Source: a virus
Lineage: Duplodnaviria > Caudoviricetes
Length of the DNA stretch: 60,315 nt
Virus record (IMG/VR): IMGVR_UViG_3300044996_000347
Span: 1 to 60,315 of that record
Direction: 5' to 3' (one strand)
Shown here piece after piece: positions 11,562-36,437 of the stretch. Below the pieces are notes generated by a model. The model was not told where the DNA came from. It was given only the letters and a program-made list of their open reading frames with translations, and did no database searches. Positions within the stretch are counted from its first letter, which is position 1. The number at the start of each line of letters is the position of its first letter. A program made the translations under genes and the position numbers.

Positions 11562-11633
11562 TCACTATGAAATTAATACATAAAGAATTAACTGAACAAT
11601 TAAATTTATATAGATGTTTTGCTACTTTGAAGT

Positions 11634-12215
11634 ATGGATAAATTAAAAAAACCAATCAATTCTTACGAACTACAAAGAAAAGTCATTAAAGATTATGAAG
11701 CAGAACAGAAATATAAACAAGGGCAAAAATATATAGAACAACAAAATAAGCTTAAAAGATATAATAAATCATTTTCTGGGAAATTTGGTTCTTTCTTAGC
11801 AAGAGGAATAGAGATTGGAGCTAAAAAAGGAAGATTTATAAAAACTTTGTATGGAAGTCAAATGCCTCAAACAAATCCTTATGGAGAAAATAAAAAGGCA
11901 AGAAAAACTATAATTGGAGGAGCGTCAAGGGGCAGAGGTAGACCTGTTGGAACTTATGATTCAAGATATGCTCGTTTTGGAGGAGTTTATGGATGGAGAA
12001 AATATCAGGCACATCAAATGAGACTGCAAAGATTAGAAGCATTAAGAAGAGCGGCAGTGAATCCTAGACAGCAGCAAATATTAAATCAAATAGAAGCTAG
12101 AGACCAAGCACAAAGAATGTCGCCAGAAGCCAAACCTATTCCAAATACATACGGACAAGTTCCTATGAAAGGTTTTATGGATGAAATAAATTTTTCAGCT
12201 AACCTCGTTCCATGA
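11634..12215 (+). CDS. Basic Arg/Gly-rich protein, possibly DNA-binding
   Basis: GRGRP AT-hook-like motif; TATA at -29. Confidence 0.7.
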   Translation: MDKLKKPINSYELQRKVIKDYEAEQKYKQGQKYIEQQNKLKRYNKSFSGKFGSFLARGIEIGAKKGRFIKTLYGSQMPQTNPYGENKKARKTIIGGASRGRGRPVGTYDSRYARFGGVYGWRKYQAHQMRLQRLEALRRAAVNPRQQQILNQIEARDQAQRMSPEAKPIPNTYGQVPMKGFMDEINFSANLVP

Positions 12216-12324
12216 ATGCTATTAAGAAACTAGAACAGATAGGCAGACTGATTAATTTTGTTGTATATATAGAAAAAAAATCAGGACTTCCAGCCAAATT
12301 TAAAATTCCAAGAGTAAAGATAAA

Positions 12325-12972
12325 ATGGCAGAAATGAGTGAAGAACAGATTATGCAAGAGTATGAAAAGGAACTTGCTTTAGCTAAAGCTCAAGGTCAAT
12401 ATTCTTCATCCCCCTATTCTCCTACTATATTTGGTGGAGGACAGAAACCGAATATTGTAGAATGGGAATTGGATTTCAAGCCGGAGCTTGAAGATATAGA
12501 AAGATTATTGAGATGCGATATAATCGCAAAAGATAAAGATGGCAACGAATACTGGACAGAGAATCCCGATAAATCAAAAGTATTCTTAAATGAACTGGGA
12601 GTTAATGATGTTCTAAGAAAGATTAGACTGCTCGTTAATAAAAATAAAGTTTTGTCCAATTATACTATTGAAGAAATAGAAGTAAGAACAAGAATAATAG
12701 GGCACGAATTAAGAATTTTGATTTATAATAATTACGAACAATATGGCATAGACAACGAATATAAAATGCACAACTATCCAATGATAGTTCTTTCTATTAT
12801 GTCTCTTGTAGAAGATGCTTATAGGAGAGCATTGGCTGGAGAGGCACATAAAGGATTAAATGAACAGAGATTATTAACCCAAAGCGAACCATTGAATCAG
12901 CCGCAATATCCTATGATGATGCCGCAATCAAAGAAACCGCATTGGTATAAACCATGGACTTGGGGGGGATAG
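12325..12972 (+). CDS. Hypothetical protein
   Basis: 215-aa ORF abutting the giant surface-protein gene. Confidence 0.75.
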   Translation: MAEMSEEQIMQEYEKELALAKAQGQYSSSPYSPTIFGGGQKPNIVEWELDFKPELEDIERLLRCDIIAKDKDGNEYWTENPDKSKVFLNELGVNDVLRKIRLLVNKNKVLSNYTIEEIEVRTRIIGHELRILIYNNYEQYGIDNEYKMHNYPMIVLSIMSLVEDAYRRALAGEAHKGLNEQRLLTQSEPLNQPQYPMMMPQSKKPHWYKPWTWGG

Positions 12973-12973
12973 T

Positions 12974-15900
12974 ATGAAAAACAGGGGGGGCATTATGTTT
13001 TTTGTTTTTTTAGGCTTGATACTTTCTGTTTTACTTGTCCCAAATGCGAGGGCAAATGCCTTTACAGAAACAATAAGCAGTGCATATAATTCTATGATAG
13101 ATTGGATAACAAGTTTTTTTACTGGAATTAAAGTTTTAGAAGATGCACATTTATTAGATGCAAACAAAAATTATGTTTCTGATATTTATAATCAAATAAA
13201 ATCCCAAGATAATAAATGGGAAACTATACCTGCTGATAATTGGATATGGATGAAGTTTGACCAGAATTTAACTAACTGCGGACATTTATTTATTTATGGA
13301 AAAGCAAAAAATAAAACAAAAGTTGAATTATATCAAGAAGGAGAAGAAAAGCCATTTGCTTATTTCTATATGAATGAAGAAAAATTATATGATATAAAAC
13401 TTAATACAATTAGAGAAGGGAGCAATATTTTATATCTAAAAACTTCTGGAGAAATAAAGGTAGATTATATTTTTGACCCTAATCCTACTTGCTCTGGAAC
13501 TTATCTTGGACAAGCTGGAACAGGGGCAATTTGCCATACTTGTTCTAACCCATGCAACTGCTATTATCAATGCGATGGCAGTGAAAGTTGCGGTGGTTTA
13601 ACTGGAATATATCATGAATGCTTCTGGGATGGGGGGCAATGCGTTGGGGGTTCAGAATGTGACGTCCCGGGAGCACAAAATGACAGTTTTGCAGGAATTA
13701 ATAACCCTCCATATTATTATAATACAACAACAAATATTTCGAGAGGATATTCTTATGTTGGAGAATTAGTTAATGTTTCTGGTTTAGTGAAAGATTTAGA
13801 AACAAATGTATCCACGGCTTGGGTTAATTCTTACTCTGAAATTAATTATACTGGAGAGAATAATTTTTCAGGGATTAAAACAGGATATCAGAACTTTGGA
13901 AGAAATTATTATGCAGCTCAAACTTTTACCGCTATTTCAGAAGATAATATCTATGGTGCTTGTGTGAATATAACAAGAAATTATGCCCTAACTTCAGCTA
14001 ATAATCTTACAATATCTATACGACAAATAATTTTAGGGGGGGTATATGGTTCAGATTTAGTAAGTGCAAAAGTATTAAATACTGCGATTAGCAATTCATC
14101 TTATAATCTGACTTGTGTTAATTTCACTTCTGTATACAAACCTTCTGCTGGAACAACTTATGGATTAGTTATATCTTCTCCAAGTTCTACCGGAGATTCT
14201 GCATATTCAGTTGCTATAGATAATTCTACAGGAACAGATGGAATGTATAAAAGATATTATGCAGGATATACTTATGACTATCCTGCAGAAGATATGCAAT
14301 ACTTTATTATTCTATACGGAACTTTTGATATTGCAACAGATTATTTTACAATAAATGGAAATGATAAATCAGTTTCAAAAGTTATAAGAACTCCATTTGC
14401 TGGAATTAATAGTTATGACTTTTGTGCAAATGACACAACAGGATTAGAAAAATGTTATACTTATTATATCAATACTCAAAATGAAACTCCCGCATCTCAA
14501 GGGTATACTCCTAATGGGCAGATAATTTCTCTTCCTAATAATACAAAAATAAATGGAGTTAATACTCTTACTTTTAATGTTTATGAAAATTCAAACCAAG
14601 TTTGCGAACAGGAATATGCAAATGTATCTACTGCTTGTGGTGGTTTATCTACTGGAAATTATGCAACTACTGGAAGTTGGAATAATGTTAGAAAATTATA
14701 TGATGGGGAATATTGGACTTATACTTATCCATACATTAATGATTCATCTCTTTTAATCAATTATACAAAACCATCTAATGCTACTAATTTATCAAAGTTA
14801 TATTATAAGGGAGGATTTACTGAAAAAGAATTAGATATACCTCAAACTTGCTGGGCATATAACGAGACAAAAATTTCTTTTAGAATAACCAGTTCATATT
14901 ATATATTAATTAAAAATTCAAGTGTTTACTGCTTTAATGGTTCTGGGTGGGTTAATATGTATTTTGCTAATGGAACTTCTGGTTTTTATGGGGTATTCTA
15001 TGAGGAAAGAATGAACTGGAGAATACCCTCTCCGGACAAAACTATTTTACAAAACATTTCTGTGTGGTTTAAAAACTCTTCAGATACGACTTATAATACT
15101 CTTGAAGCATGCAGTTCTGTTGATTTAATTACTCAAGAATGTGAATTAGATATAAGGAATACAACCAAATTTACTGAAAATGTTTCTTATAATTTTCAAT
15201 TAAGGGCTTGTGATATTTACGGCATTTGCAATAATTCAATTGATGTAAAAACATATAGAGTTGATAATGGTGCTCCATCAATAAAGAATTTAAAAATAAT
15301 TTATTCGAATAATGCAACATCTGCCAAGGCAGGAGCAGTAATTAATTTTTATATAAATGCTTCAGACAATTCTACATTAATTAATAACAGCTGGATTAAT
15401 ACTGGCGAGATTAATGGAAGTTCATTTAATTTGAATAATATATCTGGAACAAATAGAGTTGGAGAATGGAGCTACTGGAATGCTGCTGTAACAGTAAATT
15501 ACACGGAAAATCAAATTCCTGCGATTATACCTTTTTATTTTAATGATAGTGCTTCCCCACAAAACGAAAGAGATAGCGGATTTGCAGTGTATATAGACAA
15601 TTCATTTCCAAATTATTCAAATCAAATAATAAATCCATCCGTAATATATAATAATGATATAGTTTCATTTAAAATAGATGTTACTGATAATTATAGACTG
15701 AAAAAGGCAACATTAAATTTATATTACGCAAATTGGACAAGACCACCTAATTTAATCAACGCCTCAAAAAATAATGGTGGATTTGAAACAGCGGGAGCGG
15801 GGGGGGCAGATGTATTTGCTAATTGGGGGGAACAAGCTGGAAATGGGAAAATTGTTAGAGATACTGTTGATTACTACGAAGGGAGTGCGTCAGTAAGATT

Positions 15901-18900
15901 TGATACAAATACCACTAACCAATATATGTATCAAGATGTCTTGCCTGCATCTCCAAATAATTACAAAAGATACAGATATAGTTTTGCTGCAAAAACAAAT
16001 ACAACAAATGCGTATGTAAGAGTTTATTCTGGTACAGAATATACAAGACATAATTTATCAAGTAATTGGCAGAATTTTAGCGGAGAATTTTCTAATGCTT
16101 ATACCAGATTATATCTTGACCCCGAAACAGTTATAAATGTTACTCTTTGGATTGATAATTTTGAGATAGAAGAAGCATTTATTAGCAATATAACTTTAAA
16201 TGGAACAAGTGCGACCGCAACCCGTTCAATGAGATTGAAGACGGCAAATTATACTTTTAACTTTACTTTGTATGATGATGCAGGAAATACAATACAATCA
16301 GCAAGGCAAAACTTTTCTGTTTTAGGAAATGAAAATCCAATTAATATAAGTCTAATCAGTCCTGCAAATAGTGCCATAATGAAAAATCCTATAAATTTTT
16401 CATTTAATATAACGGGAGATAATGCAACAATATGTGAAGTTAATTATGATGGAAATATTTTAGGAAATATAACAAATGTTGCAGCAAATCAATTAAAAAG
16501 CTTATCAATTAATTCAAGTGAAAATTATGGAGATTGGTGGATAACTTGCGATAACGCAGATGGAAAAACTTATACAAGCAATACCTATAATCTTACTATC
16601 GATTTAACAAATCCAAATGTGTCTTATTTTAATCCTGCAAATAATATATATATAAATTCAAGTTTATATAATTTTACAGCCAACATAACAGATAATCAAG
16701 AAGTAAATAATGCAACCATAAGCATTTATAACTCATCAGGAAGCTTATTTAATAAAACAACAACCATGATTCTTGCTCCAATTTATTTTATTGGGACATT
16801 AATAGGAAATTTTATAGATGGGATATATACCTATTTTTGGGAAATTTATGATACTGCTGGAAATTATTTTCGTGGAGAGAATTATACGCTTACAGTAGAT
16901 ACAACTTATTCAAATATTAATTTTGTTTCTCCAACTCCAGATTCAGGAACTTTAACAGTAAATAGAAGTTTTATAATTAACATTTCTATAAATGAACTTA
17001 ATTTAGCTAATCTAACTTATAACTGGAATGGAACTAATTATCCTGTTTATGACAATTCTCTTTTATTGATGTATAATCTTGACAATAAAAGTTCGCTTGG
17101 AGAGAGCAGTACAGAAGTTTTTGATTTATCTCAATATGGAAATAATGGAACAGCTAATGCAGTTTGGACTTCTTCTGGAAAATATGGCGGGGCTTTCCAG
17201 TTTAATGCAACAGCTGGGCAGGGAATAGTTGTAAATACAAATAATGATTCATTTAATATAAATGACTCAACAACCGCTTCTTTAACTATAACTGCTTGGG
17301 TAAAACATTTAACTACTCCTTCTGAAAAGAATATTGTGTCAAAGGCACCGGGAGGAATTGGAAACAATAAGGGATGGTTATTCTATTTTTCTGGGTCGAG
17401 CTTTGGTGTTACATATAATAATGGTTCTGCTTCTGGGCAGTGGGTAGGGTCAGCAGCTGTTACAGCAGACACTTGGACACATTTGTCTGCAGTTTTTAAT
17501 TCAACAGGCATTGCCCTTTATATAAACGGAGTCCTTAAAAATAATCATGTATATAATAGAACAGGAAGCTTTGCCAATTCAAATGCTGTGACAATTGGGA
17601 AGCGTGGTTCTACCACAGGAACTTTCAATGGCACTATAGATGAAGTAAGAATTTGGAATAGAAGCTTAAGTGCAGACGAGGTAAACCAGATGTATAATAG
17701 AAACTTGCAGAAATACAACTCAACTCAATGGTATTTGTATGTTAATCAAAGCAAAAATTCCACAATGGGGCTTACAACTGGAAATTATACTTATCAGGCT
17801 TTCACAACTGACTTGGCAGGAAATATAAACCAGACAGAACAGAGAAGCTATGAAGTAGATATATCCCCTCCAAATTGTACATTATTAAGCAAAACACCAA
17901 GTGATATTTTAGATAATTCCACCGGAATTTTATCAATAATTCTTAATTGCACAGATAGAGCAGGAATTAATATAACCAAAATAGGCGACCATTATCCATT
18001 TTTCATCACAAGAAGTGTAGATGTTTTTATTAGTTCAGCAGGGATACCTAATTATTGGAGTACAAGATATCCTAATAACTCTTTAGCTGTAACTGGTAAT
18101 TTAACTCCGCTTTATAAAATATGGAGGGCATTAGGAAGAAATGAAGGATACTGGTATGAAAACTTGACTGAGTCGGGATTATCTGATTGTTCTGGATTAT
18201 CTCCTTGTTATGCTCCATTAAATGATACATTTTCTTATGCTATAGAAGATGGAAATTATGGGCATTTTACAGTAACTGCAGTAGATTCAACTAATACAAG
18301 TGTAATAATTAATTATACTCATCCAGCTGTAGATATATCTGCTTTCAGGCAGTCAGTTTATTTATCTTATGAGAACATGGTTAATGAAGCAAAGAAAAAC
18401 TTTACTATAAGAAATAATGCTTGGGTTTTAACAAAAAGATTTGATGCAGAAGCTTATGGGAATACATCTAATTATACAATGAATAGCTTTAGAAATTTTG
18501 GAATGGAGGATACACCAACAAAAACTTTAAGAATTTATTACTGCAATAGCTCAATAGAAAATTCCTCTGGAGGAATACCAAATGGATTTACAGCAATATC
18601 TAATTCAAATTGCAATTTAATTAATTCATTGACCTCAACTGAAATAAATAATAGAGTTTTTACAGATATAAATTCTAGTTATTCAAAAAGTGCTTATGGA
18701 ATTATTAACGGAAAGTTTGCAGGAATAACTGCGACAAGAGAATTTTATATTATGTATGAAAGCCCAGAAACTGGAGCAAATAAAGGATATAATATAAGAT
18801 ATGTTAATGGTTCTACTAATACTGACATAGGATTTAATGAAACAAGAACTGCTTGGACTTCTACTAATCAGGGCGGGGTTTGGGCTCAAACAAGCTGGAC

Positions 18901-20911
18901 ACCAGATGTATTTACTACCCAAACAAGAGCAGTAAATGACCAATTCCAATCTGGATATTATATAACAGATATGCTTGGAAATACGGGCTGGAACTTTACC
19001 TTAATTCAAGATGACATAGCATCAACTAATCATCCAATATCTTATCCATTAATTTTAGAATATAATGGAACTCTAAATCAAAATGATACTAACCTAAATT
19101 TAACACAAAAAGGAACAATACAAATTAAAGTAGGATGTGCAATAGACCCAGATAGTATAGGAAATGTAACTCATAATTTAACATTAAGAAACGAAGATGG
19201 AACTTATAATTATACAGTAAATGGTTCATTTAGATGCCCTAATGATTTAAATGTTTGGATTTCATTTGATACTTCAGCCGCTGCATCCGGCAGGTATAGA
19301 ATGAATATAACTGCAATATCTGGAGATAATTCGGCAGACATAAAATCAAGATTAACTGATAAAAATTTTACTATAGATAATAGCCCCCCATATTTTACTG
19401 CGATACCAAATAATTCATCTTTAATTTATGGCAAGGATGGTTTATCTGCGGCTTTTAATGCTTCCGATACTCTTAATCCTCCAGTAACTTATAGCATAAA
19501 CTGGACTGAAAAATTCCAGATTGATAGTTTGGGTGTTTTAACCAATACTACGACTTTATCTGGAGGAGAATATTTAATTAAAGTAATGGTTAATGACAGC
19601 ATAAATAATCAGAATAGCACTATTTATAAGGTCATAGTCAATCAAACATCAATGAATTTATCAATATCAGGAACAACTCCAATTAACTATGGAACAACTA
19701 CTGATGTAGTTGGTTCTAATTGTCCTTCTCAATTAACATGTACTTTATCTCCGTCTAATGGAGTTTATGGTGCTGGAACAAAAACATTTAATTATTCAAC
19801 TATTGGAAACGAAAATTATAGTTCAAGTTCTATTACAAAGAATATTTTGATAAATAAAATTGCAAGTTCAATCTATTTATATTTGGATGGATTAAGACAA
19901 AGCAAAACAATACACGCCTATTCAACTTTAAATTCTACGGCAGTTATAAATACAGGAAATAACATAGATATAGAATTATATGTAGCTGGAACAGGATATA
20001 TCGGGGCTTCTCCATTAGAAAATCTTTCTAAGTTTTCTACAGCCGGATTGTATAATATAACTGCTATTTATCCTTCAAGTGAAAATTACACTTCTAGTTT
20101 TGAAAGGCAGTATGTAACTGTTATAAGCAACGAATCTCAAAGTAAATGCAATATAACAAGCGGGACTTATACAAATCAGCATGGTTCTGAAAAGATGTAT
20201 AATAAATTATGCAATTCGATAGATTTTGGAGTAGTTTATACAATTAAAAGAGGTTCTGATATTTCAATTAATATCCCAATAATTGAGAATGATAATAAGA
20301 AAATGGTTGGGGGATATTGTGAAATCAGTTTAGACTATCCTAATGGAACCGCATTTATAGTTAATCAACCAATGAATGTATTTGATGGTTATGCAAGTTA
20401 TTCCTTTGAGATGATAGATTCCTCTGGTGAATTAAGGGGTGATATATATTGTAATAATGGAAAAGATACTGGAATAAGTTTATTTGGAATAGAATCTACT
20501 GCAACTGGCTCTGGGTTTTCTACAGCTAAAGCTGTAATTTATATAGTTATTTTAATTGTATCAATATTGATTTTTGGAGGATTTCTGGTCATAGGATTTT
20601 CTGTTCCATATAAAAACAAAACAGATGAGATGACTGGATATGTTATTGCATTAAGCAATCTGAAATATGTAAAAATAGGGGCTTTTGCATTTGCATATCT
20701 TGCTGCTATGTTTATATCATATTTCTCTTGGATGATTTGCTTTGCATATTTAGACATGGAATTTGTTTCAAATATGTTTAGATTTATGTTTTATGGGTTT
20801 GGAGCAGCTTTAGTTCCATTATTTATTTTGGGGGTTTATGTAGTAATCGCAAACATAGTCAGGGATAGTAAAATTGCAGACCTTTTGAGCAGGGGGATAA
20901 GAACAAAATGA
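12974..20911 (+). CDS. Giant (2645 aa) secreted, membrane-anchored adhesin with Ig-like, CBM4/9-like and LamG domains
   Basis: Signal peptide; NGGFE...W CBM-like motif; WTHL...LYING...FNGTIDEVRIWNRSLS LamG motif; three C-terminal TMs; abundant N-x-S/T sequons. Confidence 0.88.
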   Translation: MKNRGGIMFFVFLGLILSVLLVPNARANAFTETISSAYNSMIDWITSFFTGIKVLEDAHLLDANKNYVSDIYNQIKSQDNKWETIPADNWIWMKFDQNLTNCGHLFIYGKAKNKTKVELYQEGEEKPFAYFYMNEEKLYDIKLNTIREGSNILYLKTSGEIKVDYIFDPNPTCSGTYLGQAGTGAICHTCSNPCNCYYQCDGSESCGGLTGIYHECFWDGGQCVGGSECDVPGAQNDSFAGINNPPYYYNTTTNISRGYSYVGELVNVSGLVKDLETNVSTAWVNSYSEINYTGENNFSGIKTGYQNFGRNYYAAQTFTAISEDNIYGACVNITRNYALTSANNLTISIRQIILGGVYGSDLVSAKVLNTAISNSSYNLTCVNFTSVYKPSAGTTYGLVISSPSSTGDSAYSVAIDNSTGTDGMYKRYYAGYTYDYPAEDMQYFIILYGTFDIATDYFTINGNDKSVSKVIRTPFAGINSYDFCANDTTGLEKCYTYYINTQNETPASQGYTPNGQIISLPNNTKINGVNTLTFNVYENSNQVCEQEYANVSTACGGLSTGNYATTGSWNNVRKLYDGEYWTYTYPYINDSSLLINYTKPSNATNLSKLYYKGGFTEKELDIPQTCWAYNETKISFRITSSYYILIKNSSVYCFNGSGWVNMYFANGTSGFYGVFYEERMNWRIPSPDKTILQNISVWFKNSSDTTYNTLEACSSVDLITQECELDIRNTTKFTENVSYNFQLRACDIYGICNNSIDVKTYRVDNGAPSIKNLKIIYSNNATSAKAGAVINFYINASDNSTLINNSWINTGEINGSSFNLNNISGTNRVGEWSYWNAAVTVNYTENQIPAIIPFYFNDSASPQNERDSGFAVYIDNSFPNYSNQIINPSVIYNNDIVSFKIDVTDNYRLKKATLNLYYANWTRPPNLINASKNNGGFETAGAGGADVFANWGEQAGNGKIVRDTVDYYEGSASVRFDTNTTNQYMYQDVLPASPNNYKRYRYSFAAKTNTTNAYVRVYSGTEYTRHNLSSNWQNFSGEFSNAYTRLYLDPETVINVTLWIDNFEIEEAFISNITLNGTSATATRSMRLKTANYTFNFTLYDDAGNTIQSARQNFSVLGNENPINISLISPANSAIMKNPINFSFNITGDNATICEVNYDGNILGNITNVAANQLKSLSINSSENYGDWWITCDNADGKTYTSNTYNLTIDLTNPNVSYFNPANNIYINSSLYNFTANITDNQEVNNATISIYNSSGSLFNKTTTMILAPIYFIGTLIGNFIDGIYTYFWEIYDTAGNYFRGENYTLTVDTTYSNINFVSPTPDSGTLTVNRSFIINISINELNLANLTYNWNGTNYPVYDNSLLLMYNLDNKSSLGESSTEVFDLSQYGNNGTANAVWTSSGKYGGAFQFNATAGQGIVVNTNNDSFNINDSTTASLTITAWVKHLTTPSEKNIVSKAPGGIGNNKGWLFYFSGSSFGVTYNNGSASGQWVGSAAVTADTWTHLSAVFNSTGIALYINGVLKNNHVYNRTGSFANSNAVTIGKRGSTTGTFNGTIDEVRIWNRSLSADEVNQMYNRNLQKYNSTQWYLYVNQSKNSTMGLTTGNYTYQAFTTDLAGNINQTEQRSYEVDISPPNCTLLSKTPSDILDNSTGILSIILNCTDRAGINITKIGDHYPFFITRSVDVFISSAGIPNYWSTRYPNNSLAVTGNLTPLYKIWRALGRNEGYWYENLTESGLSDCSGLSPCYAPLNDTFSYAIEDGNYGHFTVTAVDSTNTSVIINYTHPAVDISAFRQSVYLSYENMVNEAKKNFTIRNNAWVLTKRFDAEAYGNTSNYTMNSFRNFGMEDTPTKTLRIYYCNSSIENSSGGIPNGFTAISNSNCNLINSLTSTEINNRVFTDINSSYSKSAYGIINGKFAGITATREFYIMYESPETGANKGYNIRYVNGSTNTDIGFNETRTAWTSTNQGGVWAQTSWTPDVFTTQTRAVNDQFQSGYYITDMLGNTGWNFTLIQDDIASTNHPISYPLILEYNGTLNQNDTNLNLTQKGTIQIKVGCAIDPDSIGNVTHNLTLRNEDGTYNYTVNGSFRCPNDLNVWISFDTSAAASGRYRMNITAISGDNSADIKSRLTDKNFTIDNSPPYFTAIPNNSSLIYGKDGLSAAFNASDTLNPPVTYSINWTEKFQIDSLGVLTNTTTLSGGEYLIKVMVNDSINNQNSTIYKVIVNQTSMNLSISGTTPINYGTTTDVVGSNCPSQLTCTLSPSNGVYGAGTKTFNYSTIGNENYSSSSITKNILINKIASSIYLYLDGLRQSKTIHAYSTLNSTAVINTGNNIDIELYVAGTGYIGASPLENLSKFSTAGLYNITAIYPSSENYTSSFERQYVTVISNESQSKCNITSGTYTNQHGSEKMYNKLCNSIDFGVVYTIKRGSDISINIPIIENDNKKMVGGYCEISLDYPNGTAFIVNQPMNVFDGYASYSFEMIDSSGELRGDIYCNNGKDTGISLFGIESTATGSGFSTAKAVIYIVILIVSILIFGGFLVIGFSVPYKNKTDEMTGYVIALSNLKYVKIGAFAFAYLAAMFISYFSWMICFAYLDMEFVSNMFRFMFYGFGAALVPLFILGVYVVIANIVRDSKIADLLSRGIRTK

Positions 20912-21135
20912 CAAGTAAATCAAATCAAAAATCAGGAGTATCATTCTGGATGTTTAAAGCTCCGGTAGCATTAAAACAAGTATTAGATAATGTTAGAAGG
21001 GAAAGAATTAAGAGAGGGAAAGATTTAGAAATGAAAAGTTATAGAAGGCTTGGACTTGCTATAGCTAGGCATAATAATCTTATTAGGGATTTAATGAATG
21101 CAGATATGAAGGAGGAAATGAAAAATGAGCAGTAA
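20908..21135 (+). CDS. Small basic hypothetical protein
   Basis: Overlaps both neighbouring genes. Confidence 0.65.
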   Translation: MTSKSNQKSGVSFWMFKAPVALKQVLDNVRRERIKRGKDLEMKSYRRLGLAIARHNNLIRDLMNADMKEEMKNEQ

Positions 21136-21661
21136 AGCACAATTCACACTATTCCACTTTATAATATTTTCTTTCTTAGCTGTGATTTTCTTTGCTGGAT
21201 TAATTTACATTATGGGTCAGTTAAATAGTGTATTTAATCAAATTGGATTAGCCAATGAAGTCAATGCAGGGCAATCAGGATATGTAAATATGAGCCAAGC
21301 ATCCCAGCAAATTTGGGGAAACGCATATCAATCTATACAAGCATTAAGAATGGTTGCGATAGTATATATTTTATCTCTTGCAGTGATAACTATAATAATC
21401 GGAGCATTTGAAAGGAAATATCCTTTCTTGTTTATAGTCTATATTTTAATAACCGTATTGGCAATAATCTTTGCACCGCAGATTTCAAATGCTTATGAGA
21501 AGATACTTGAAACAAACATATTTGGCGGAGAATTGGCAAATTTCTCAACCGCTAATTATTTATTGCTTAATCTTCCAACTATTGTCATGTTTATTGGGAT
21601 ACTTGGAACGATATTTTTATTAATAAATTTAATCAGAACAGCGGGAGAACAATCAATATGA
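21125..21661 (+). CDS. Polytopic membrane protein with class III-like leader (SKA|QF)
   Basis: Four hydrophobic segments; NxS sequons in loops. Confidence 0.8.
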   Translation: MSSKAQFTLFHFIIFSFLAVIFFAGLIYIMGQLNSVFNQIGLANEVNAGQSGYVNMSQASQQIWGNAYQSIQALRMVAIVYILSLAVITIIIGAFERKYPFLFIVYILITVLAIIFAPQISNAYEKILETNIFGGELANFSTANYLLLNLPTIVMFIGILGTIFLLINLIRTAGEQSI

Positions 21662-24084
21662 AGCATAAAATAAGCTATTATAATCGATTTATAGCCATCT
21701 TTTTTATCTGTATGATGTTTTATATGAGTTTTGTTTTAGCTTTGCCGAAGGAAATAGCAAGATGGACTTTCGATAATAATTCCACAAATTCAACTATTAC
21801 GGCTTATGGAATTAATGCAACAACTATTGGAACAGTGGGATTCAATGAAGGTGCATTAAATTCTACCCGTGGTAATTTAAATCTAACACAAGGAAAAGGA
21901 GCATTGTTTATGACTGGCAGTAATTCAGTATGTGCAAGGGTAAAGACAACAAATCACAGCCTTGCGGGTATATTTGAGTATCAATGGATTTATGAATTTA
22001 GAATTAATGGCGGTATGCTGACTTTCTCTGCTTCAGACAGCCCATCAACAAATGTTTATTCAAATACAAATCAATCAACGGGAACTTGGCAGCACTTTTG
22101 TGTTGTAAGATACGCAGGAAGTAATTATACAATGTATATAAATGGAACTTATAGAAATAGTTCAACAGATGCTATAGGAAAAGAATATTCAAATGAAATA
22201 GTTATAGGAGCAAATTATGTTCATGCAGCTCAATTTGGGGGTTTAATTGATAATATAAGAGTGTTTAATGGCTCTTTAAGTGAGTCGGAAGTTATTGATG
22301 TTTATAATAATATATTTCCAGTAGAGGTTAGTTTATCATCCCCCGCTAATAATGGTTATCTAATTAACTTTCCATATAGACTAAACGCATCTATTCAGAG
22401 CCAGAACGAAACTTTAATTAATTCTAGTTTCTATGTTTATTATTCGAACGGTTCTCTCCAAAAAATTTATAACAATACAATCACTGGAAGCTTGAATACT
22501 TCTTCAATGATGATAGACAACCTTACTTTAGGCAGTTATATTTGGAATGTTCATGCTTGTGATGCTTTGGGGTGTGCATGGTCTCCTATTAATTATACTT
22601 TTACTTCGGGGTATGCAATTAATTCTATAAATTATAATTCTACTTCAAATTCAGGTTCGTTAGAATCAATAGGAATAAATTTAACATATTCATCTATTTA
22701 TACGGGAATAAATGTTATTTTAAATTATAATGGGACAAATTATACTATGTCCGCCTTAGATACAGGAATGACTAAAAATTATTTATACAGTATAACTACT
22801 CCTTCTGTTTCTGCACAGACTAATACCCCATTCTTTTTTAAAATTATATTAACTAATTCCAATGGAACTTCAGTAATTACTACTAGTTCATATAATCAAA
22901 CTGTGAGCCCTCTTCTAATTGATAATTGCGGTTCATATACTAAAGTATTGCTGAATATGAGCATTTTAGATGAAGAATCTTTGCTTCCATTGAATGGAAC
23001 AATTATTCTTACTGCAAATATTTATACATCTGGAACAAATACTCTTATAACCTCATATAATAGTTCATTCAATTATATATACCCCACTCCTGCGAGGATT
23101 TGCTTGTCAAATATTTCCACAACTTATGATATGGATTACCAGATTCAATTTTGGTCTAATTCATCTTACTTTAAGAAATATAAAACTATCCAAAATATGC
23201 AGATAACAAATTCAACTTTGCCGCAGAATATAATATTGTACGATTTGCAGCAGTCATCGGGATATTCTTTCAGTGTGATAGTTGTAGGCAATTTATATTC
23301 TACAAATGGCAATGCAGATTTATTAGTTGATGTTCAAAAGAAATATATCTCTCAAAATAAATTTATTTCCATAGAAAGTTCAGAGACAAGTTCAGACGGG
23401 ATAGCAATAGCTCATTTAATTCCAAATTCAGAAATATATAACTTTGTTGTAAGTTATGCTGGAGTTACTTTAGGTACATTTAATAATTATCAGGTTCAAT
23501 GCCAAAATGTTGTGACCAGTTCATGTGCTATTACTTTAAATCTTGCCCAATCAACTGCTCAACTCCCAGATTTTTATAACTATGGAAATATAAGCCAAGT
23601 CCTTCAACTTGTAAATAATACCTTGTATCATACATTCAGTTCCACCGACGGAATAACACATACTATAAGAAGCTGGGTTATAAAAAATGATGGATATTCA
23701 AATACAACAATATGCAACAATACTGCTGTTGGAACATCTGGAACAATAGCATGTGATATCCCGGTGGTGTATCAAGACAGTGATTTTTGGGTGAGGACTT
23801 ATGTAGATGGAAATTACATCAGCTCAAATTTCTTTTCTCAAGGAACAAATCATAATTGGTATGGAGCAGATATAATTATAGAGATATTAATGTTTAGCTG
23901 TCTTACTTTATTACTAGTTTATCACCCTATAACTATAACCTTGGGGGCAGTCTTAGGGATGACCTTTTCTGTTCTTTTATTATTTGCAGGTCAAGGAAAT
24001 TTTGGCTCTATATTTGGAGCTGTCTTATTTTATATTATTGGAGGTATTGTTGTAATATGGCAAATATCAAGAAGACAATTATGA
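21658..24084 (+). CDS. Secreted LamG/Ig-like protein with three C-terminal TMs (putative virion spike or terminal protein)
   Basis: Signal peptide, WQHFCVV...MYING...GLIDNIRVFNGSLS, many sequons. Confidence 0.85.
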   Translation: MKHKISYYNRFIAIFFICMMFYMSFVLALPKEIARWTFDNNSTNSTITAYGINATTIGTVGFNEGALNSTRGNLNLTQGKGALFMTGSNSVCARVKTTNHSLAGIFEYQWIYEFRINGGMLTFSASDSPSTNVYSNTNQSTGTWQHFCVVRYAGSNYTMYINGTYRNSSTDAIGKEYSNEIVIGANYVHAAQFGGLIDNIRVFNGSLSESEVIDVYNNIFPVEVSLSSPANNGYLINFPYRLNASIQSQNETLINSSFYVYYSNGSLQKIYNNTITGSLNTSSMMIDNLTLGSYIWNVHACDALGCAWSPINYTFTSGYAINSINYNSTSNSGSLESIGINLTYSSIYTGINVILNYNGTNYTMSALDTGMTKNYLYSITTPSVSAQTNTPFFFKIILTNSNGTSVITTSSYNQTVSPLLIDNCGSYTKVLLNMSILDEESLLPLNGTIILTANIYTSGTNTLITSYNSSFNYIYPTPARICLSNISTTYDMDYQIQFWSNSSYFKKYKTIQNMQITNSTLPQNIILYDLQQSSGYSFSVIVVGNLYSTNGNADLLVDVQKKYISQNKFISIESSETSSDGIAIAHLIPNSEIYNFVVSYAGVTLGTFNNYQVQCQNVVTSSCAITLNLAQSTAQLPDFYNYGNISQVLQLVNNTLYHTFSSTDGITHTIRSWVIKNDGYSNTTICNNTAVGTSGTIACDIPVVYQDSDFWVRTYVDGNYISSNFFSQGTNHNWYGADIIIEILMFSCLTLLLVYHPITITLGAVLGMTFSVLLLFAGQGNFGSIFGAVLFYIIGGIVVIWQISRRQL

Positions 24085-24554
24085 ATAAAAAGGCAAGAGC
24101 ATTTGTCCAAATAGTATTGGGAATAATAGTCATTACTTTCTTTGCTATGACTTTAGTGGCATTTCCTCTTAGATTTATAGGGGAAACAAATCCAAATTCT
24201 GAAATAATCACCGAAGGAAGTTTATCCAACAGCTATTATTCAATGAACAGCTCACTTAAAAATTTAGAAAATATGAAAGATAATATTCAAGCTCAACTTT
24301 CTGGTGCTAAGGTAACCCCCGCAGATTATATATTCCTTATTTTTCAAGGAGCTTTTGAAATACCAAAAACAATGTTTTCCTTTGTAGTTTCTGGAGTAGT
24401 AAGCATATCAGAATTATTTACTGGAGGATTAGTAGCAGATTCTGGAATCAGCATGGTAATAACTACAGGAGTATCTATTTTATTTGCGGGGATAATTATA
24501 ATAATAGTCATTGCGGTTATAAAATTTATAAGGGGGAATGATGCTGAAAGATGA
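24081..24554 (+). CDS. Membrane protein with class III-like leader (KKARA|F)
   Basis: N- and C-terminal TMs; ATGA overlap suggests a start at 24081. Confidence 0.75.
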   Translation: MNKKARAFVQIVLGIIVITFFAMTLVAFPLRFIGETNPNSEIITEGSLSNSYYSMNSSLKNLENMKDNIQAQLSGAKVTPADYIFLIFQGAFEIPKTMFSFVVSGVVSISELFTGGLVADSGISMVITTGVSILFAGIIIIIVIAVIKFIRGNDAER

Positions 24555-24877
24555 CATATCCTGAATTAAATTCGACATTAGTATCAAACAACTTAGCAGA
24601 GATTCTCGTCTATGCTAATACAGTAACTCACCAATGGTTTGGTATAACTTTAGTTATCTCTTTTTTTATAACTATATTATTAGCTTCATCATTTATGCAG
24701 TTTAGATATTCTGGAAGAATAAAACCCGAAACAAGTTTTCTTGCAAGTTCATTTGCTACTTTGGGATTTGCCGTAATATTAGAGCAATATTCTGGAATCT
24801 TGAATACAACTTATTTTTTTATATTGATAGCAATAACTATTTTATGCTTCATTTGGGTAGTATTCAGTTCTGATTAA
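24551..24877 (+). CDS. Three-TM membrane protein
   Basis: Hydrophobicity pattern. Confidence 0.75.
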   Translation: MTYPELNSTLVSNNLAEILVYANTVTHQWFGITLVISFFITILLASSFMQFRYSGRIKPETSFLASSFATLGFAVILEQYSGILNTTYFFILIAITILCFIWVVFSSD

Positions 24878-24941
24878 AAGATAACTTAGTTTACGAAGTT
24901 TACAAACAATTTAAATACTTTTCAGCAGTGATATTTTTAGG

Positions 24942-24987
24942 TTTAGCAGGAAGTAGTCTAATAGCTGAACCGCTATTTCTTGCTAAA
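24942..24987 (+). promoter_or_regulatory. 15-bp stem hairpin in the 5' leader of the putative capsid gene
   Basis: tttagcaggaagtag / ctatttcttgctaaa with two G-U pairs, between TATA tttaaata (about 24910) and SD gaaaggaggt. Confidence 0.55.
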
Positions 24988-25031
24988 TTAACTTAACACA
25001 ATTTGAAAGGAGGTTTTACCTCAAAAAAACT

Positions 25032-25379
25032 ATGGATTACACAAAATTAATGTCTAAATTCAAGATGAATAGAAAGGGAGTTTTTGGATTGTCCGCAATC
25101 CAGTCTTTCTTTGTAGCTATCTTGGGTATAGGATTACTTGCTTATGTAATTGTCATAATTATGGGTTCTTTGCAAAGTGCAAATATTGTCACCAGCGGCT
25201 CATTAGCCTCTAACCAGACAAATTACATTTTGACAAATGTATCCTCTGGAGTTACAGGGTTCTTTAGCTCTATAAATCCAGTTTATGCTATACTGGCAGT
25301 ATTAGTTATAATCTTAGTACTAGTTGTTCTTGTAAGAGTTGTTCAGTCACCTGCTGGAAACTCTAGTGTTCAACTATAA
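25032..25379 (+). CDS. Putative major capsid protein (two hydrophobic helices, prepilin-like leader RKG|VF)
   Basis: Helical hairpin with NQT/NVS sequons in the loop; own promoter and strong SD. Confidence 0.7.
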   Translation: MDYTKLMSKFKMNRKGVFGLSAIQSFFVAILGIGLLAYVIVIIMGSLQSANIVTSGSLASNQTNYILTNVSSGVTGFFSSINPVYAILAVLVIILVLVVLVRVVQSPAGNSSVQL

Positions 25380-25510
25380 GGTTGTAATTAGTAGATAACG
25401 GAGGCGTGGTTTCCTCCTCTGTAACTCATTGGAAACCATTTATCATTATACTTTGTTTAAAAATGGCTTTGCAGGTAGCCTAGAATACCTGCTTTAAAAT
25501 CATTGCAAAA

Positions 25511-25642
25511 ATGCCAATCAAATTAGAAAAAAAATTAATGAAAGAAACAAGAATTAAGTTTCACTCAGTAAAATCTCCAAGAGCCAGAACTTATATTTTT
25601 AGAACTCTGCGAAAAACAGGAGGGAAACCTAGAAGAAGATGA
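25511..25642 (+). CDS. Small basic protein, putative nucleoprotein
   Basis: MPIKLEKKLMKETRIKFHSVKSPRARTYIFRTLRKTGGKPRRR; ATGA-coupled to the next ORF. Confidence 0.6.
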   Translation: MPIKLEKKLMKETRIKFHSVKSPRARTYIFRTLRKTGGKPRRR

Positions 25643-25737
25643 AAAAGTTTAACGACGATATATTAAAACCGGATGAGTATAATCTTATTAAAAAAAAGAA
25701 AAAAGCAAAAAAACACGGAAAGAAAAAGAAAAGATGA
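25639..25737 (+). CDS. Very small Lys-rich protein
   Basis: MKKFNDDILKPDEYNLIKKKKKAKKHGKKKKR; ATGA overlaps on both sides. Confidence 0.5.
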   Translation: MKKFNDDILKPDEYNLIKKKKKAKKHGKKKKR

Positions 25738-25943
25738 AATGCAAATTTGGAAGAGAATTAAGGATGGGCATGAAGATTGAGAGAAAACATGCTCATTTAT
25801 TTCCTAAAAATGTCAGGAAGGAAATAGTTAAAAGAATTGTTTTAGACCATATCAAAGAAAATCCTTGTTATTATTCAAAGGGATTAATTCCTATGGAAAG
25901 AAAATTGAAAGGGGGTTTTTATGGGAAAAGAATTATTAAATGA
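25734..25943 (+). CDS. DUF5661-like small viral protein
   Basis: ELRMGMKIE..H...IVLDHIKENPCYY pattern. Confidence 0.6.
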   Translation: MKCKFGRELRMGMKIERKHAHLFPKNVRKEIVKRIVLDHIKENPCYYSKGLIPMERKLKGGFYGKRIIK

Positions 25944-26499
25944 TAAAAGGGGAGTTTTTGGGCTGAGTGCGATTCAACTATTCTTTGTAGCTATCTTGAG
26001 TATAGGATTACTTGCTTATGTAATTGTTATAATTATGGGTTCTTTGAGTGGAACTACAATTCTCAGCAAAAGTTCTACTACCGTAGCAAATGAAACTTAT
26101 ACAGCAAGTGTTCCTGCTTGGATTAACTCTACAGGTTACACTTTAAGTAAAGCTTCAACCCAAGGATTCTCGGCAACAAGCTTATTGGTAATTAATGCCA
26201 CCGATGGGACTACAGTTCCGACAGCAAACTATACTTACACCTCTGCGGGAGTTGTTACAAATACAACACCTAAAGTTTATAGTGTTGTAAATATTACTTA
26301 TACTTACAACTATAATACTCAACACCAAAATAATTTAGAGGGAGTTCTAACCAATACTTCGAGTGGAGTTACAGGGTTCTTTAGCTCTATAAATCCAGTT
26401 TATGCTATACTGGCAGTATTAGTTATAATCTTAGTACTAGTTGTTCTTGTAAGAGTTGTTCAGTCACCTGAAAGAACTCAATCTGCACCACAGCTATAA
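25921..26499 (+). CDS. Putative minor capsid protein, paralog of 25032 with an inserted extracellular beta domain
   Basis: Same KRG|VF leader and both TMs; Thr-rich insert with several sequons. Confidence 0.7.
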   Translation: MGKELLNDKRGVFGLSAIQLFFVAILSIGLLAYVIVIIMGSLSGTTILSKSSTTVANETYTASVPAWINSTGYTLSKASTQGFSATSLLVINATDGTTVPTANYTYTSAGVVTNTTPKVYSVVNITYTYNYNTQHQNNLEGVLTNTSSGVTGFFSSINPVYAILAVLVIILVLVVLVRVVQSPERTQSAPQL

Positions 26500-26802: not shown

Positions 26803-28134
26803 ATGGAAACTGACCAAATTGAATTAATGAAATGCAGAAATTGTAAATTTTGCAGTATTCCTAAATGCCCTGAACTAGAACATGCTGTATTTAGATGTTC
26901 AAAAGAAATTTCAGATGATAGAAGTATTGTTCAGCTAGAATCCTCTTGTTTTAATGGATTGTTTGAAAAATTAGAGAATAGTGAAATAAAAGAAGTATAT
27001 TATGAAATAATTAATATATTAAAAGAATTTATTGAAACAAGCGAGGAAAATTACCAATTCATTGCTTTATGGATATTGGGAACTCATTTTCACGATTACT
27101 TTCAAACTTACCCCTATCTTTTCATAAATGCAATGAAAGGTTCGGGGAAAAGTCGATTACTAAAATTAATCAAAACTTTATCTTGGCATGGAGATATGTT
27201 AGCTTCTTTGTCTGAAGCAGTCTTGTTTAGAACTTCTGGAACTTTATGTATTGATGAATTTGAGGAAATAGGCGGTAAAGATAAGAATAGTTTAAGAGAA
27301 TTACTTAATACGGCATATAAAAGGGGTGGAAAGGTAAAAAGGATGAAAAAGAGGCATACTGTTGTAGGAGATGAACAAGTAGTTGAAGAATTTTCTACTT
27401 TTAGACCTATTGCTATTGCTAATATTTGGGGGATGGAAGAAGTATTGGGGGATAGATGCCTTAACATTGTTTTAGAGAAGTCTTCCAATTCTACCATTAC
27501 TCGAAAGATAGAAAACTTTGAAAATAACCCCAAAATAGCAAAAATCATAGAAAAAATAGCCAAAATCCAAATTCAGTGTCGTTTGTGTCGTGTCGTTACG
27601 CAAAAAAACATATATGAGGAGTGGAATAACTATTTAAATATAACGACACTAACAACACATACTACACTAACTACACTTACTACATTTACTACACAAACGA
27701 CACAAAACGACACTAATATCACCTTTTTTGATAAAATTATAAAAACTGATTTAGATGGAAGAAATTTAGAACTACTATTTCCACTTTTTTTAATTGCAGA
27801 AGAAATAGGAGTTATAGATATAATTATTTCTATTGGAGTTAAGATTTCACATGATAAAAAAGAAGAAGATATAAATGAAAGCAGTGATGTATTAGTTTAT
27901 AGGCTTGTTTCTAATCAGACTACAAAAGATTGGATTAAAGTATCTGATTTAGTTAATTCTTTATCTTGGGAAATGAAAAATGAGGAAACAGATAAATGGC
28001 TTAATGCAAAATGGATGGGAAAGTGTCTTAAAAGGTTAAATTTACTAATCGATAAAAAAAGATTAAGTGATGGTAGAGTGGTAAAATTAAATATAGAAAA
28101 AGCAAAGGAGAAATTAAAAATCTTTGAAAGATGA
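26803..28134 (+). CDS. Replication helicase-like AAA+ ATPase (DUF3631-like) with N-terminal Cys cluster
   Basis: AMKGSGKS Walker A, LCIDE Walker B, LGDRC Arg finger, wHTH-like C-terminus. Confidence 0.85.
   Translation: METDQIELMKCRNCKFCSIPKCPELEHAVFRCSKEISDDRSIVQLESSCFNGLFEKLENSEIKEVYYEIINILKEFIETSEENYQFIALWILGTHFHDYFQTYPYLFINAMKGSGKSRLLKLIKTLSWHGDMLASLSEAVLFRTSGTLCIDEFEEIGGKDKNSLRELLNTAYKRGGKVKRMKKRHTVVGDEQVVEEFSTFRPIAIANIWGMEEVLGDRCLNIVLEKSSNSTITRKIENFENNPKIAKIIEKIAKIQIQCRLCRVVTQKNIYEEWNNYLNITTLTTHTTLTTLTTFTTQTTQNDTNITFFDKIIKTDLDGRNLELLFPLFLIAEEIGVIDIIISIGVKISHDKKEEDINESSDVLVYRLVSNQTTKDWIKVSDLVNSLSWEMKNEETDKWLNAKWMGKCLKRLNLLIDKKRLSDGRVVKLNIEKAKEKLKIFER
27575..27714. repeat. Iteron-like 9-mer array inside the helicase gene
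   Basis: Eight (a/t)ac(g/t/a)aca-type units at 27642..27714 facing three inverted gtgtcgt units at 27575..27597. Confidence 0.8.
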
Positions 28135-29588: not shown

Positions 29589-30023
29589 ATGGAAACAATA
29601 AACAAACAAATTGTAGAATTGGAGAAAAAGATAGATTTAATAAAAAAATTCTGGGAGAAATATCTTGAATCTGATATTTTAGAACAACGAAGACAACTTG
29701 GAGAATTGGGCTTGGTGGATGATTTAGCCCAAGAAGGATTTCCAGACTGGAAAGATATGACAAAAGAAAAACAAATTGGGCTTCGCAAGCGTATTCTTGT
29801 AACAATATTACATGGATACTTAGATGATATGAGAAGCACTATTAAAGAAGCTATTATTGAAGATGCTTTTGAGAAGTTGAAAAAAAGAATTAGTATACAA
29901 GGTAATCTATCTCATAGGATTGTAGAAATAAATGGAGAATATAAACATCTTCATGATTATGTTCTTAATGAAATTGTAATAGATATTATCAATGAAATAA
30001 AATCAGAGGTAATAGGAAAATGA
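29589..30023 (+). CDS. Hypothetical helical protein
   Basis: 144-aa ORF. Confidence 0.7.
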   Translation: METINKQIVELEKKIDLIKKFWEKYLESDILEQRRQLGELGLVDDLAQEGFPDWKDMTKEKQIGLRKRILVTILHGYLDDMRSTIKEAIIEDAFEKLKKRISIQGNLSHRIVEINGEYKHLHDYVLNEIVIDIINEIKSEVIGK

Positions 30024-30072
30024 AGTTAACTGATTCTCAGCTATATAACTATGGGATAATTGGACAAGAATT

Positions 30073-30199
30073 AATAAAAGTTATAAAAAGAGCAGAAATG
30101 TTTGATAAACTTGTCATAAATGATATAAAATCTCATTTGATGAATAATCTAAACAAAAACAAGCGGGTAGATTAGCATGAAAACTAAAGAAGAAATTTT
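30073..30199 (+). repeat. Exact 127-bp direct repeat, copy 2
   Basis: Identical to 1..127. Confidence 0.97.
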
Positions 30200-30680
30200 A
30201 AGGATGAATAAAAAAGAATTATTTGCTTATAAATGGAATGACGATTTTGATGAAGAAGATGATTGTTCTGATTGTTATAATTGTTCAAATTGTGCTCATT
30301 GCCATAATTGTAATGATTGTTCTGATTGTTTTAATTGTTCAAATTGTGATGGTTGTTTTGATTGTGATGGTTGTTTTTATTGTTTTAATTGTTATTGCTG
30401 TAGAAATCTAAGAAGAGAAAGTTATTGTATCTGCAATATTAAATTAACTAGAGAAGAATATGAGAGGAAAATGGAGGAGTTGAAAAATGATAGAGAAGAT
30501 AAAGAATTAGGATTGAAGATCGCAACGAGTAGAGCAGAGCAGATATGGGGCAATGTCCTGAAAGAAGCAGAGCAGTTAATCATGCAATCTAAGGACAATA
30601 TTGTTATCCAAGAAGCTCTTGAGAAGTTAGCTAGGGATAAACTTAAAGAATTGGAGAATGAAAACAAGCGGGTAGATTAG
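30177..30680 (+). CDS. Cys-rich repeat protein paralog 2, fused to a helical domain
   Basis: CxxCxx repeats followed by EDKELGLKIAT... Confidence 0.8.
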   Translation: MKTKEEILRMNKKELFAYKWNDDFDEEDDCSDCYNCSNCAHCHNCNDCSDCFNCSNCDGCFDCDGCFYCFNCYCCRNLRRESYCICNIKLTREEYERKMEELKNDREDKELGLKIATSRAEQIWGNVLKEAEQLIMQSKDNIVIQEALEKLARDKLKELENENKRVD

Positions 30681-36371: not shown

Positions 36372-36437
36372 TACATCAACAATTATGGTTAAATGTAAAA
36401 TCTGTAAAAGAATATTAACATTTCCTCAAGGAGGAAA

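Follow-up and report, generated by a model that had tools for sequence, protein, structure and literature searches.

The 60,315-nucleotide IMG/VR record IMGVR_UViG_3300044996_000347 (here called the window, meaning the whole stretch at its full length) raises the question of how a set of small archaeal membrane proteins is matured. Between 20.9 and 26.5 kb it carries a run of same-strand genes, named here B, C, D, E, F, G, and H in order, and the products of four of them (C, E, G, and H) begin with a short basic leader set ahead of a hydrophobic helix, in the manner of the class III (prepilin-type) signal peptides of archaea. A sequence-only reading of this DNA had taken the four for capsid subunits matured by the prepilin peptidase of the host. 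When family-wide comparison, profile and structure searches, and assembly depth are considered together, processing of the leaders by a PibD/FlaK-type peptidase of family A24 emerges as the best explanation, and one that we regard as probable. It draws on conservation of the predicted cut site among relatives, on an A24 gene that lies beside G and H in some of them, and on the presence of such an enzyme in the putative host.

Leaders of C, E, G, and H and their conservation in relatives

The four N-termini are present in the window as the sequence-only reading had quoted them. G (25032..25379, plus strand) is a two-helix protein of 115 amino acids with a predicted class III leader of 16 residues (25032-25079) ending in NRKG/VFGL, where the slash denotes the predicted cut. 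Past the leader, helix 1 leads into a loop whose N-x-S/T sequons are conserved, and helix 2 is succeeded by a short basic tail; an AF2 model (pLDDT 75) places helices at residues 20-49, 58-80, and 83-104. H (25921..26499, plus strand; 192 amino acids) is a paralogue of G, the two genes being connected by repeats D6 and D8; its predicted leader of 11 residues (25921-25953) ends in DKRG/VFGL, and it has N- and C-terminal helices as in G together with a Thr/Ser/Asn-rich loop insertion of about 75 residues. Long (180-219 residues) and short (100-119 residues) members of this family co-occur in related loci. C (21125..21661, plus strand; 178 amino acids) has about four transmembrane (TM) segments and a predicted leader at 21125-21139 within the N-terminus MSSKA/QFTLF.

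E (24081..24554, plus strand) combines an N-terminal TM segment with two C-terminal ones and has 157 amino acids, or 165 if translation started at 24057. The ATG at 24081 overlaps the stop codon of D (ATGA) and gives MNKKARAFVQI, which resembles homologues starting with MNKK[GA]. The open reading frame (ORF) and motif of the proposed leader stand; by homology, the cut is more likely to be MNKKA/R, with a predicted leader at 24081-24095, than the ARA/F that had been suggested. In all four proteins, the leader is followed by a hydrophobic helix, whose Kyte-Doolittle segment begins 3-10 residues past the site, and by one or more further TM segments toward the C-terminus. An N-terminal hydrophobic segment is found in 11 of the 60 ORFs of the window, and [KR][GA] stands directly ahead of it in five of these, namely C, E, G, H, and a protein of 2645 amino acids; this pattern exceeds chance. 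The NRG/G of the 2645-residue protein was considered as a fifth leader and dropped, as the motif is not kept and the homologues carry Sec-type signals.

Conservation of the site in homologues had been named as a check, and [KR][GA] is indeed conserved. Public data contain 389 homologues of G at E<=0.01, with 63-83% identity among the 120 matches listed. These 120, together with family members from 85 related loci, gave 201 unique G/H sequences; the mature start [VILMA][FL]G[LIMV], which itself forces Gly at +3, served to anchor 198 of them. Positions -2/-1 are [KR][GA] in 183 of these 198, and -1 is always a small residue (Gly in 182, Ala in 13, and Ser in 3). Alignment columns ahead of -5 carry less information, and the leaders, taken from the longest ORF, vary from 7 to 60 residues. 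Independently of the anchor, a MAFFT alignment of 50 sequences shows F18, G19, and L20 to be invariant, and distant G/H members (33-49% identical) retain K[GAS]/[VI]LGL.

In the C family, 18 of 21 members carry [KR][GA][QE], one has KS/Q, and two have SG/[DQ]. The E family divides differently: among 38 members with an N-terminus, 17 have a [KR][GA] leader of the KK[GA] type, 18 are leaderless, and 3 are of another kind. In the 18 leaderless members, the start lies no more than a few residues from the predicted mature end (M-x-GL[RNS]P...), and since a removable leader predicts just such an either/or pattern, the split fits leader removal. An impression gained from a single relative, that the C and E motifs are not conserved, was overturned by these family-wide counts.

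Taken together, the alignments support the view that the leaders behave like class III signal peptides, with a small residue at -1, a basic one at -2, a variable region upstream, and, in G/H, an invariant Gly at +3. In a review of archaellation, pre-archaellins are described as having Gly at -1, charged residues at -2/-3, and a nearly invariant Gly at +3, and PibD as accepting leaders as short as 3 residues (PMC10117864). G and H share with archaellin and pilin signals the short charged leader, Gly/Ala at -1, Lys/Arg at -2, the helix that follows directly, and Gly at +3. Unlike archaellins and pilins, they lack a globular beta-rich domain and possess a second TM helix near the C-terminus, C and E having still more. 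As such, none of G, H, C, and E shows the single N-terminal helix, globular domain, and lack of any further TM segment that define a type IV pilin.

A family A24 peptidase in relatives and in the putative host

The claim that the window encodes neither a prepilin peptidase nor a pilus ATPase was borne out by three profile searches. PF01478 (Peptidase_A24) has no match in the window at E<=10, and a jackhmmer profile of the viral A24 proteins described below finds none either in the window or in G001, a related genome of 25,074 bp. PF00437 (T2SSE pilus ATPase), which is present in metagenome-assembled genomes (MAGs) of the putative host, is likewise missing from both the window and G001; no separate search was aimed at the platform protein. 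As the window has no peptidase, the enzyme acting on this element would have to be the host's.

Among relatives, the situation is different. In locus L001, a 153-residue protein encoded at 11099-11560, on the opposite strand and 499 nt downstream of the H gene, matches PF01478 (E 2e-10; 41.5 bits against a gathering cut-off of 26.5), and a copy on contig C9 of the MAG G003 scores 36.5 bits. With the jackhmmer profile, a minimal A24 peptidase is found on 10 distinct related contigs, at 86-1106 nt from G/H in eight and at 3.2-7.2 kb in two more. Of the 22 loci with 3 kb or more of sequence past G/H, seven encode it, and so do three short contigs, at 86-112 nt. The 22 loci represent 21 distinct contigs, the window included (L003 and L037 are one record), and the seven loci with A24 are all distinct contigs. 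The linkage of the peptidase to G/H is therefore partial. One 48,268-bp metagenome contig, of which L050 and L075 are the two ends, has G-family genes at both ends, with 99 nt separating one of these genes from that of a minimal A24 peptidase; the contig may hold two tandem elements or more than one genome length.

The viral-type peptidase is about 142-156 residues long and has six predicted helices. The first catalytic Asp (D26), the second motif G78-G79-x-D81-x-K83 (GG[AG]D.K), and IPF.P are kept in all eight full-length copies. These catalytic motifs align with those of a 275-residue host enzyme, of which an insert of about 95 residues is missing from the short form. For an AF2 model of the short peptidase (pLDDT 86), the top Foldseek match is FlaK (3s0x_B), with a probability of 0.98, a TM score of 0.55, and an E value of only 0.17; the next match has a probability of 0.13. 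The peptidase of the relatives thus shares with FlaK (PDB 3S0X) the PF01478 match, both Asp motifs, the C-terminal IPF.P, and the top structural match, and differs from FlaK and the host-type A24 enzymes in being minimal, at about 150 residues, its gene not being part of this window. A tblastn search with the viral peptidase against deposited phage and virus genomes gave no match.

Two G-family loci lie on contigs of Candidatus Woesearchaeota MAGs, and from this binning the host can tentatively be assigned as a Woesearchaeota-type DPANN archaeon. One of these MAGs, G003, has the short peptidase on its viral contig and the 275-residue A24 enzyme elsewhere. In a sample of the host order, 79 of 81 genomes contain PF01478 matches above the cut-off, the ORFs being about 260-360 residues long, and host proteins of the Pilin_N family carry M..[KR]G/[IL]S leaders. 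It is thus plausible, from these sequences, that the host has an enzyme of matching specificity at -2, -1, and +1. A 2026 survey (PMC13705601) describes complete type IV filament systems as rare in DPANN; this presents no conflict, because only the peptidase is needed here. The proposal of a route served by the host enzyme consequently holds for this element, with its window free of a peptidase gene and A24 enzymes widespread in the host order, and does not extend to the relatives, which often encode an A24 peptidase of their own.

A number of observations weigh against A24 processing or against the wider picture drawn from it. Basic residues are expected ahead of a first TM helix in any case, from the positive-inside rule. 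E of the window lacks the GL that follows the site in its homologues. None of the four proteins matches a pilin, archaellin, or class III signal family of Pfam at E<=0.1; PF07790 (Pilin_N) and PF04021 (Class_IIIsignal) find nothing in the window, PF07790 having matched the host pilins, and hhalign of the G profile against eight host pilins gives no meaningful alignment. When the G model is compared with the PDB, Foldseek returns 0 matches and the best hit of a wide VIA-align search has a Z of 6.6, in the noise range for generic helical hairpins, a shape for which fold searches tell little. The element shows no capsid hallmark, and neither PHROGs nor deposited virus genomes gave a match. Two MAG contigs, possibly mis-binned viral ones, underlie the host assignment, and 14 of the 21 distinct contigs with at least 3 kb downstream show no peptidase within flanks limited to 10 kb.

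On the same evidence it could be argued that the N-termini are ordinary uncleaved signal anchors, with Lys/Arg supplied by the positive-inside rule and a Gly or Ala that is conserved without being a cut site. Such an account would sit well with the lack of a match to any pilin, archaellin, or class III hidden Markov model, with the close similarity of the listed G/H homologues, which keeps many columns conserved, and with the basic flanks that occur without the motif in the other 6 of the 11 ORFs with an N-terminal TM segment. It does not explain why conservation starts abruptly at -4/-2 when leader length varies so widely, why the feature is common to three unrelated families of one module, why half of the E family is leaderless and starts at the predicted mature end, or why an A24 peptidase gene adjoins G/H in 10 contigs, and we consider it unlikely.

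A second alternative is that helix 1 acts as a class I (Sec-type) signal peptide and is lost when signal peptidase I cuts behind the hydrophobic stretch, leaving mature proteins without it, as may be suggested by the Sec-type signals of the neighboring D and 2645-residue proteins. However, helix 1 of G/H spans about 30 residues and is among the best conserved parts of the protein, unlike disposable signal peptides; F26, F27, L31, G32, L36, A37, M44, and G45 in it are invariant, and no site of the A-x-A type follows it. This alternative is the least credible of those considered here, and processing by an A24 peptidase ahead of a retained helix 1 remains the preferred reading of the leaders.

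A non-tailed element with a fusellovirus-like gene order

The window is a composite: approximately 1-30.2 kb represents a non-tailed element, and 31.3-60.3 kb part of a head-tailed virus. Proteins encoded at 3.8-28.1 kb are collinear with those of G001, which has a 92-nt terminal repeat and contains the whole module, a resolvase, and a DUF3631-like helicase, and in which no terminase or HK97 capsid gene was found. Proteins encoded at 31.3-60.3 kb are collinear with those of the head-tailed viruses G084 (41,998 bp, with an 81-nt terminal repeat) and G085. Homology splits cleanly between G001 and G084/G085 at 28-31 kb. The contig has genes for a terminase large subunit, a portal, an HK97-fold capsid, and a tail tube, and assignment to Caudoviricetes applies to 31.3-60.3 kb only.

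Assembly depth was taken from the public lake-water runs X7 and X1; X8 and X9, with scattered low-depth pieces, were left out. The non-tailed element and the head-tailed part (31308-60315) are joined by a shared repeat at 29865..30185, a 321-bp unitig. In X7, unitig depth is 68-72 to the left of 29.9 kb and 24 to the right of 30.9 kb, with 99 for the repeat; in X1, it is 38-41 on the left against 28-32 on the right, with 67 for the repeat (against 39 and 28). The left/right ratio is thus 3-fold in X7 and 1.4-fold in X1, and the repeat shows the summed depth. Independent abundance combined with a shared repeat indicates two replicons, and the 60-kb path probably arose as a join in the assembly or else reflects an arrangement present in a minority. 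The start of the contig (1-490) is a diverged copy (86% and 81% identity) of 30073-30560. CheckV rates the record as 99% complete, a value that is misleading because the contig joins two replicons and starts in a diverged repeat copy.

It follows that the left-hand, non-tailed element is the one to which G, H, C, and E are to be assigned. If they were instead proteins of the head-tailed virus, acting for example in lysis, exclusion, or modification of the host surface, their presence on the 60-kb contig that also encodes terminase, portal, HK97 capsid, and tail tube would be accounted for, as would the near-complete rating of the record by CheckV. Yet no G-family gene was found in the complete tailed relative G084 or in four other tailed relatives, in a search run without a positive control alongside, and the complete G001 has the module and no tailed-virus genes. 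With the split in homology and the change in depth across the shared unitig, a head-tailed origin becomes highly improbable.

The module itself invites comparison with that of the fusellovirus SSV1, in which the genes C792, B78, C166, VP1, and VP3 follow one another as D, E, F, G, and H do here, with a paralogue directly downstream in both. C792 has a signal and three C-terminal TM segments; D (21658..24084, plus strand) is a surface protein of 808 amino acids with a Sec-type signal, C-terminal TM anchors, and a Laminin_G_3 domain (PF13385, E 5.7e-16). B78 (two TM segments) and then C166 (four) find a parallel in E (about three) and then F (24551..24877, plus strand; 108 amino acids, two TM segments, leaderless, with 58 family members in the loci). 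VP1, with a leader and two helices, resembles G, and VP3, two helices with a Thr/Ser-rich loop insertion, resembles H with its Thr/Ser/Asn-rich one. Both pairs have two long hydrophobic helices, a sequon-bearing loop, and a Pro that opens helix 2.

The parallel includes the leader. In the SSV1 VP1 frame, ..KLTKG is followed by EATNIGVLLGL.., with the cut after KG, and in an alignment re-derived from nine fusellovirus genome records, the residues before the cut-site Glu are [KR][GA] in all nine. A leader of variable length ending in a conserved basic-small pair is thus common to fusellovirus VP1 and G/H. The residue after the cut is the universal Glu in fuselloviruses, whereas it is V/I in G/H, Q/E in C, and variable in E. 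PMC5748691 states that VP1 of SSV1 virions starts at Glu66 and gives the protease as unknown; it reports from experiment that VP1 leaders have 15-66 residues and that the 5 residues before the cut are essential, Glu66 being changeable (PMC5748691). A pibD mutant of Sulfolobus islandicus adsorbs SSV9 and yields no virus, which the authors ascribe to missing pilins (PMC7217056). Full-text searches, with most subscription journals, supplements, and figures outside their scope, found no paper that links a prepilin peptidase with coat maturation. The view that this route is new for spindle-type capsids accordingly agrees with the literature found, and is arguably prefigured by the VP1 cut of SSV1.

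The match in architecture to the SSV1 module does not establish homology. PF06281 (VP1_VP3) finds nothing at E<=10 in the window or G001, with the SSV1 controls recovered at E values of 2.5e-40 and 1.1e-21; the probability that hhalign assigns to the G profile paired with SSV1 VP1/VP3 is 0.6-2%, and the E and F families give nothing against SSV1 C166 and B78. Fuselloviruses also differ in context, having a Sulfolobales host and a genome of about 15 kb; the present element would have a mesophilic DPANN host and spans 25-30 kb. A capsid role and a spindle morphology are thus suggested by architecture only. In this respect, the earlier proposal of capsid subunits matured by the host prepilin peptidase holds for this element as regards the host enzyme; its capsid and spindle-type part comes down to architecture.

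It could also be envisaged that the element is not a virus at all and is plasmid-like or integrative, with A24-processed G/H serving as parts of a cell-surface filament or adhesion structure, the giant lectin proteins as adhesins, and a host type IV ATPase and platform carrying out assembly. The lack of a capsid hallmark in the 25-kb G001 and the T2SSE ATPases of host MAGs would be in keeping with such a role. Thaumarchaeal integrative-conjugative elements carry a prepilin peptidase and pilins (PMC6563490), and so offer a precedent for mobile elements equipped with a prepilin peptidase of their own as well as class III substrates; they also carry VirB4/VirD4-type ATPases and conjugation genes, none of which were found in G001 or the window. 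The resemblance of G to archaellin N-termini is in register and weak: the only matches of the G profile to PDB sequences at E<=10 are two archaellins, aligned at KG and at the +3 Gly, with E values of 0.58 and 1.9 that are not significant, so that this alignment is a hint and not evidence. The archaeal conjugative pilin 8dft_A ranks 16 in the VIA-align search of the G model, with a Z of 5.0 that lies within noise.

Several features fit a filament or adhesion element poorly. The second C-terminal TM helix, with only about 35 residues between the helices, is a misfit for an extractable pilin; the element has no T2SSE ATPase or VirB4-like gene, the platform protein not having been searched for separately; architecture and gene order match the fusellovirus structural module; and IMG/VR classes these records as viral, which is weak evidence. 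We regard such an element as improbable, though a little less so than uncleaved signal anchors, and return to a virus-like element with A24-processed structural proteins as the preferred reading.

Other genes of the contig and a model for maturation

The membrane/structural module of the element covers about 8.3-26.5 kb. Its first part (8337..12972, plus strand) encodes three conserved soluble proteins of 1074, 193, and 215 amino acids, which are basic, nearly sequon-free, and without a family match; only by inference could an internal or DNA-associated role be given to them. The giant surface protein of 2645 amino acids (12974..20911, plus strand) follows, with a signal peptide, Laminin_G_3, Big_13, and C-terminal TM anchors. 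Counts of N-x-S/T sequons differ strongly across the module: the giant protein has 133 (5.0 per 100 residues), D has 35 (4.3), H has 7 (3.6), and G has 2.6 per 100 residues, against 3 (0.3 per 100 residues) in the soluble 1074-residue protein (8337-11561). This contrast marks the loops and large proteins as external and suggests that the surface proteins are heavily N-glycosylated. For F, an N-out topology is suggested by a conserved N-x-S/T sequon near its N-terminus.

B (20908..21135, plus strand) is a soluble basic protein of 75 amino acids whose gene overlaps the start of C. The two are fused in frame in 5 of 21 relatives (for example, L001 4238-5023 and G001 14143-14913), and in the fusions the [KR][GA]/Q (or SG/[DQ]) site lies exactly at the joint. 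Cleavage there would free a soluble cytoplasmic domain from a membrane protein. No family in Pfam, PHROGs, or NCBIfam describes C, E, F, G, or H (PHROGs giving none or E>0.01), and neither blastn of 20.5-28 kb nor tblastn of G against deposited phage and virus genomes found a match.

Outside the module, a P-loop protein of 443 amino acids (26803..28134, plus strand) with a DUF3631-like (primase-associated helicase) fold and a homologue in G001 is likely the replication protein of the element. An ATPase of 293 amino acids with Walker A/B motifs (3795..4676, minus strand) is conserved in G001, L029, and L043; it has no PDB sequence match, and its neighbors in a protein atlas are viral, with one Zot-like cluster (18% share) serving only as a lead. 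It may be a morphogenesis or packaging ATPase. It ends in a helix-turn-helix-like tail, and its upstream partner (4673-5089, minus strand) is conserved in the same three relatives. A tRNA-Met gene lies inside the non-tailed element at 5343-5416 (minus strand), and none was seen in seven related loci scanned; it may be cargo or the remnant of an integration.

Three paralogous genes at 105-416, 30177-30680, and 30682-31038 consist largely of 9-nt repeats encoding repeats of the Cys-x-x-Cys type, and homologues of the whole trio are found on L054, a related G-type contig. In the head-tailed part, 31825-41474 holds a block of GT1, GT2, and GT4 glycosyltransferases, methyltransferases, and two radical SAM proteins, one with a B12-binding domain; the block is partly common to G084 and G085 and may be a glycan-modification cassette.

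The cleavage, virion location, and morphology that we infer could be combined into the following model. The region of about 1-30.2 kb would represent a non-tailed, virus-like element that resides in DPANN archaea of the Woesearchaeota type. Synthesis of G and H, and probably of C and E as well, would begin with a short cytoplasmic leader rich in Lys; the precursors would insert into the host membrane with the N-terminus inside, and a GxGD aspartyl peptidase of family A24 would cut after [KR][GA]. About a third of the relatives carry their own minimal peptidase of some 150 residues, which would serve this step. The cut hairpins would then expose an outward loop with N-glycosylation sequons and, with the large lectin-domain surface proteins held by C-terminal TM anchors, may assemble into the envelope or coat of a particle. 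This last step is modeled on the VP1/VP3 coat of fuselloviruses.

To our knowledge, class III leaders and A24 peptidases have been described only where pili, archaella, and certain surface proteins of archaea are matured. A widespread group of uncultured DPANN elements keeps this cut site on its most abundant small proteins of structural type, and this offers a concrete pairing of enzyme and substrate by which the virions of a virus group without a cultured member may mature. It can be speculated, at somewhat less than even chances in our judgment, that the two-helix coat proteins of spindle-type viruses, from DPANN elements to SSV1, are generally matured by a PibD/FlaK-type peptidase that takes off a class III leader, with some viruses having captured and minimized the peptidase and the hairpin being either an offshoot of type IV filament subunits or a case of convergence. 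If so, capture and minimization of the peptidase would free some viruses from dependence on the host enzyme. The PibD/FlaK-type peptidase would also be a testable candidate for the protease that cuts VP1 of SSV1, and the hypothesis thereby transfers to a tractable model virus.

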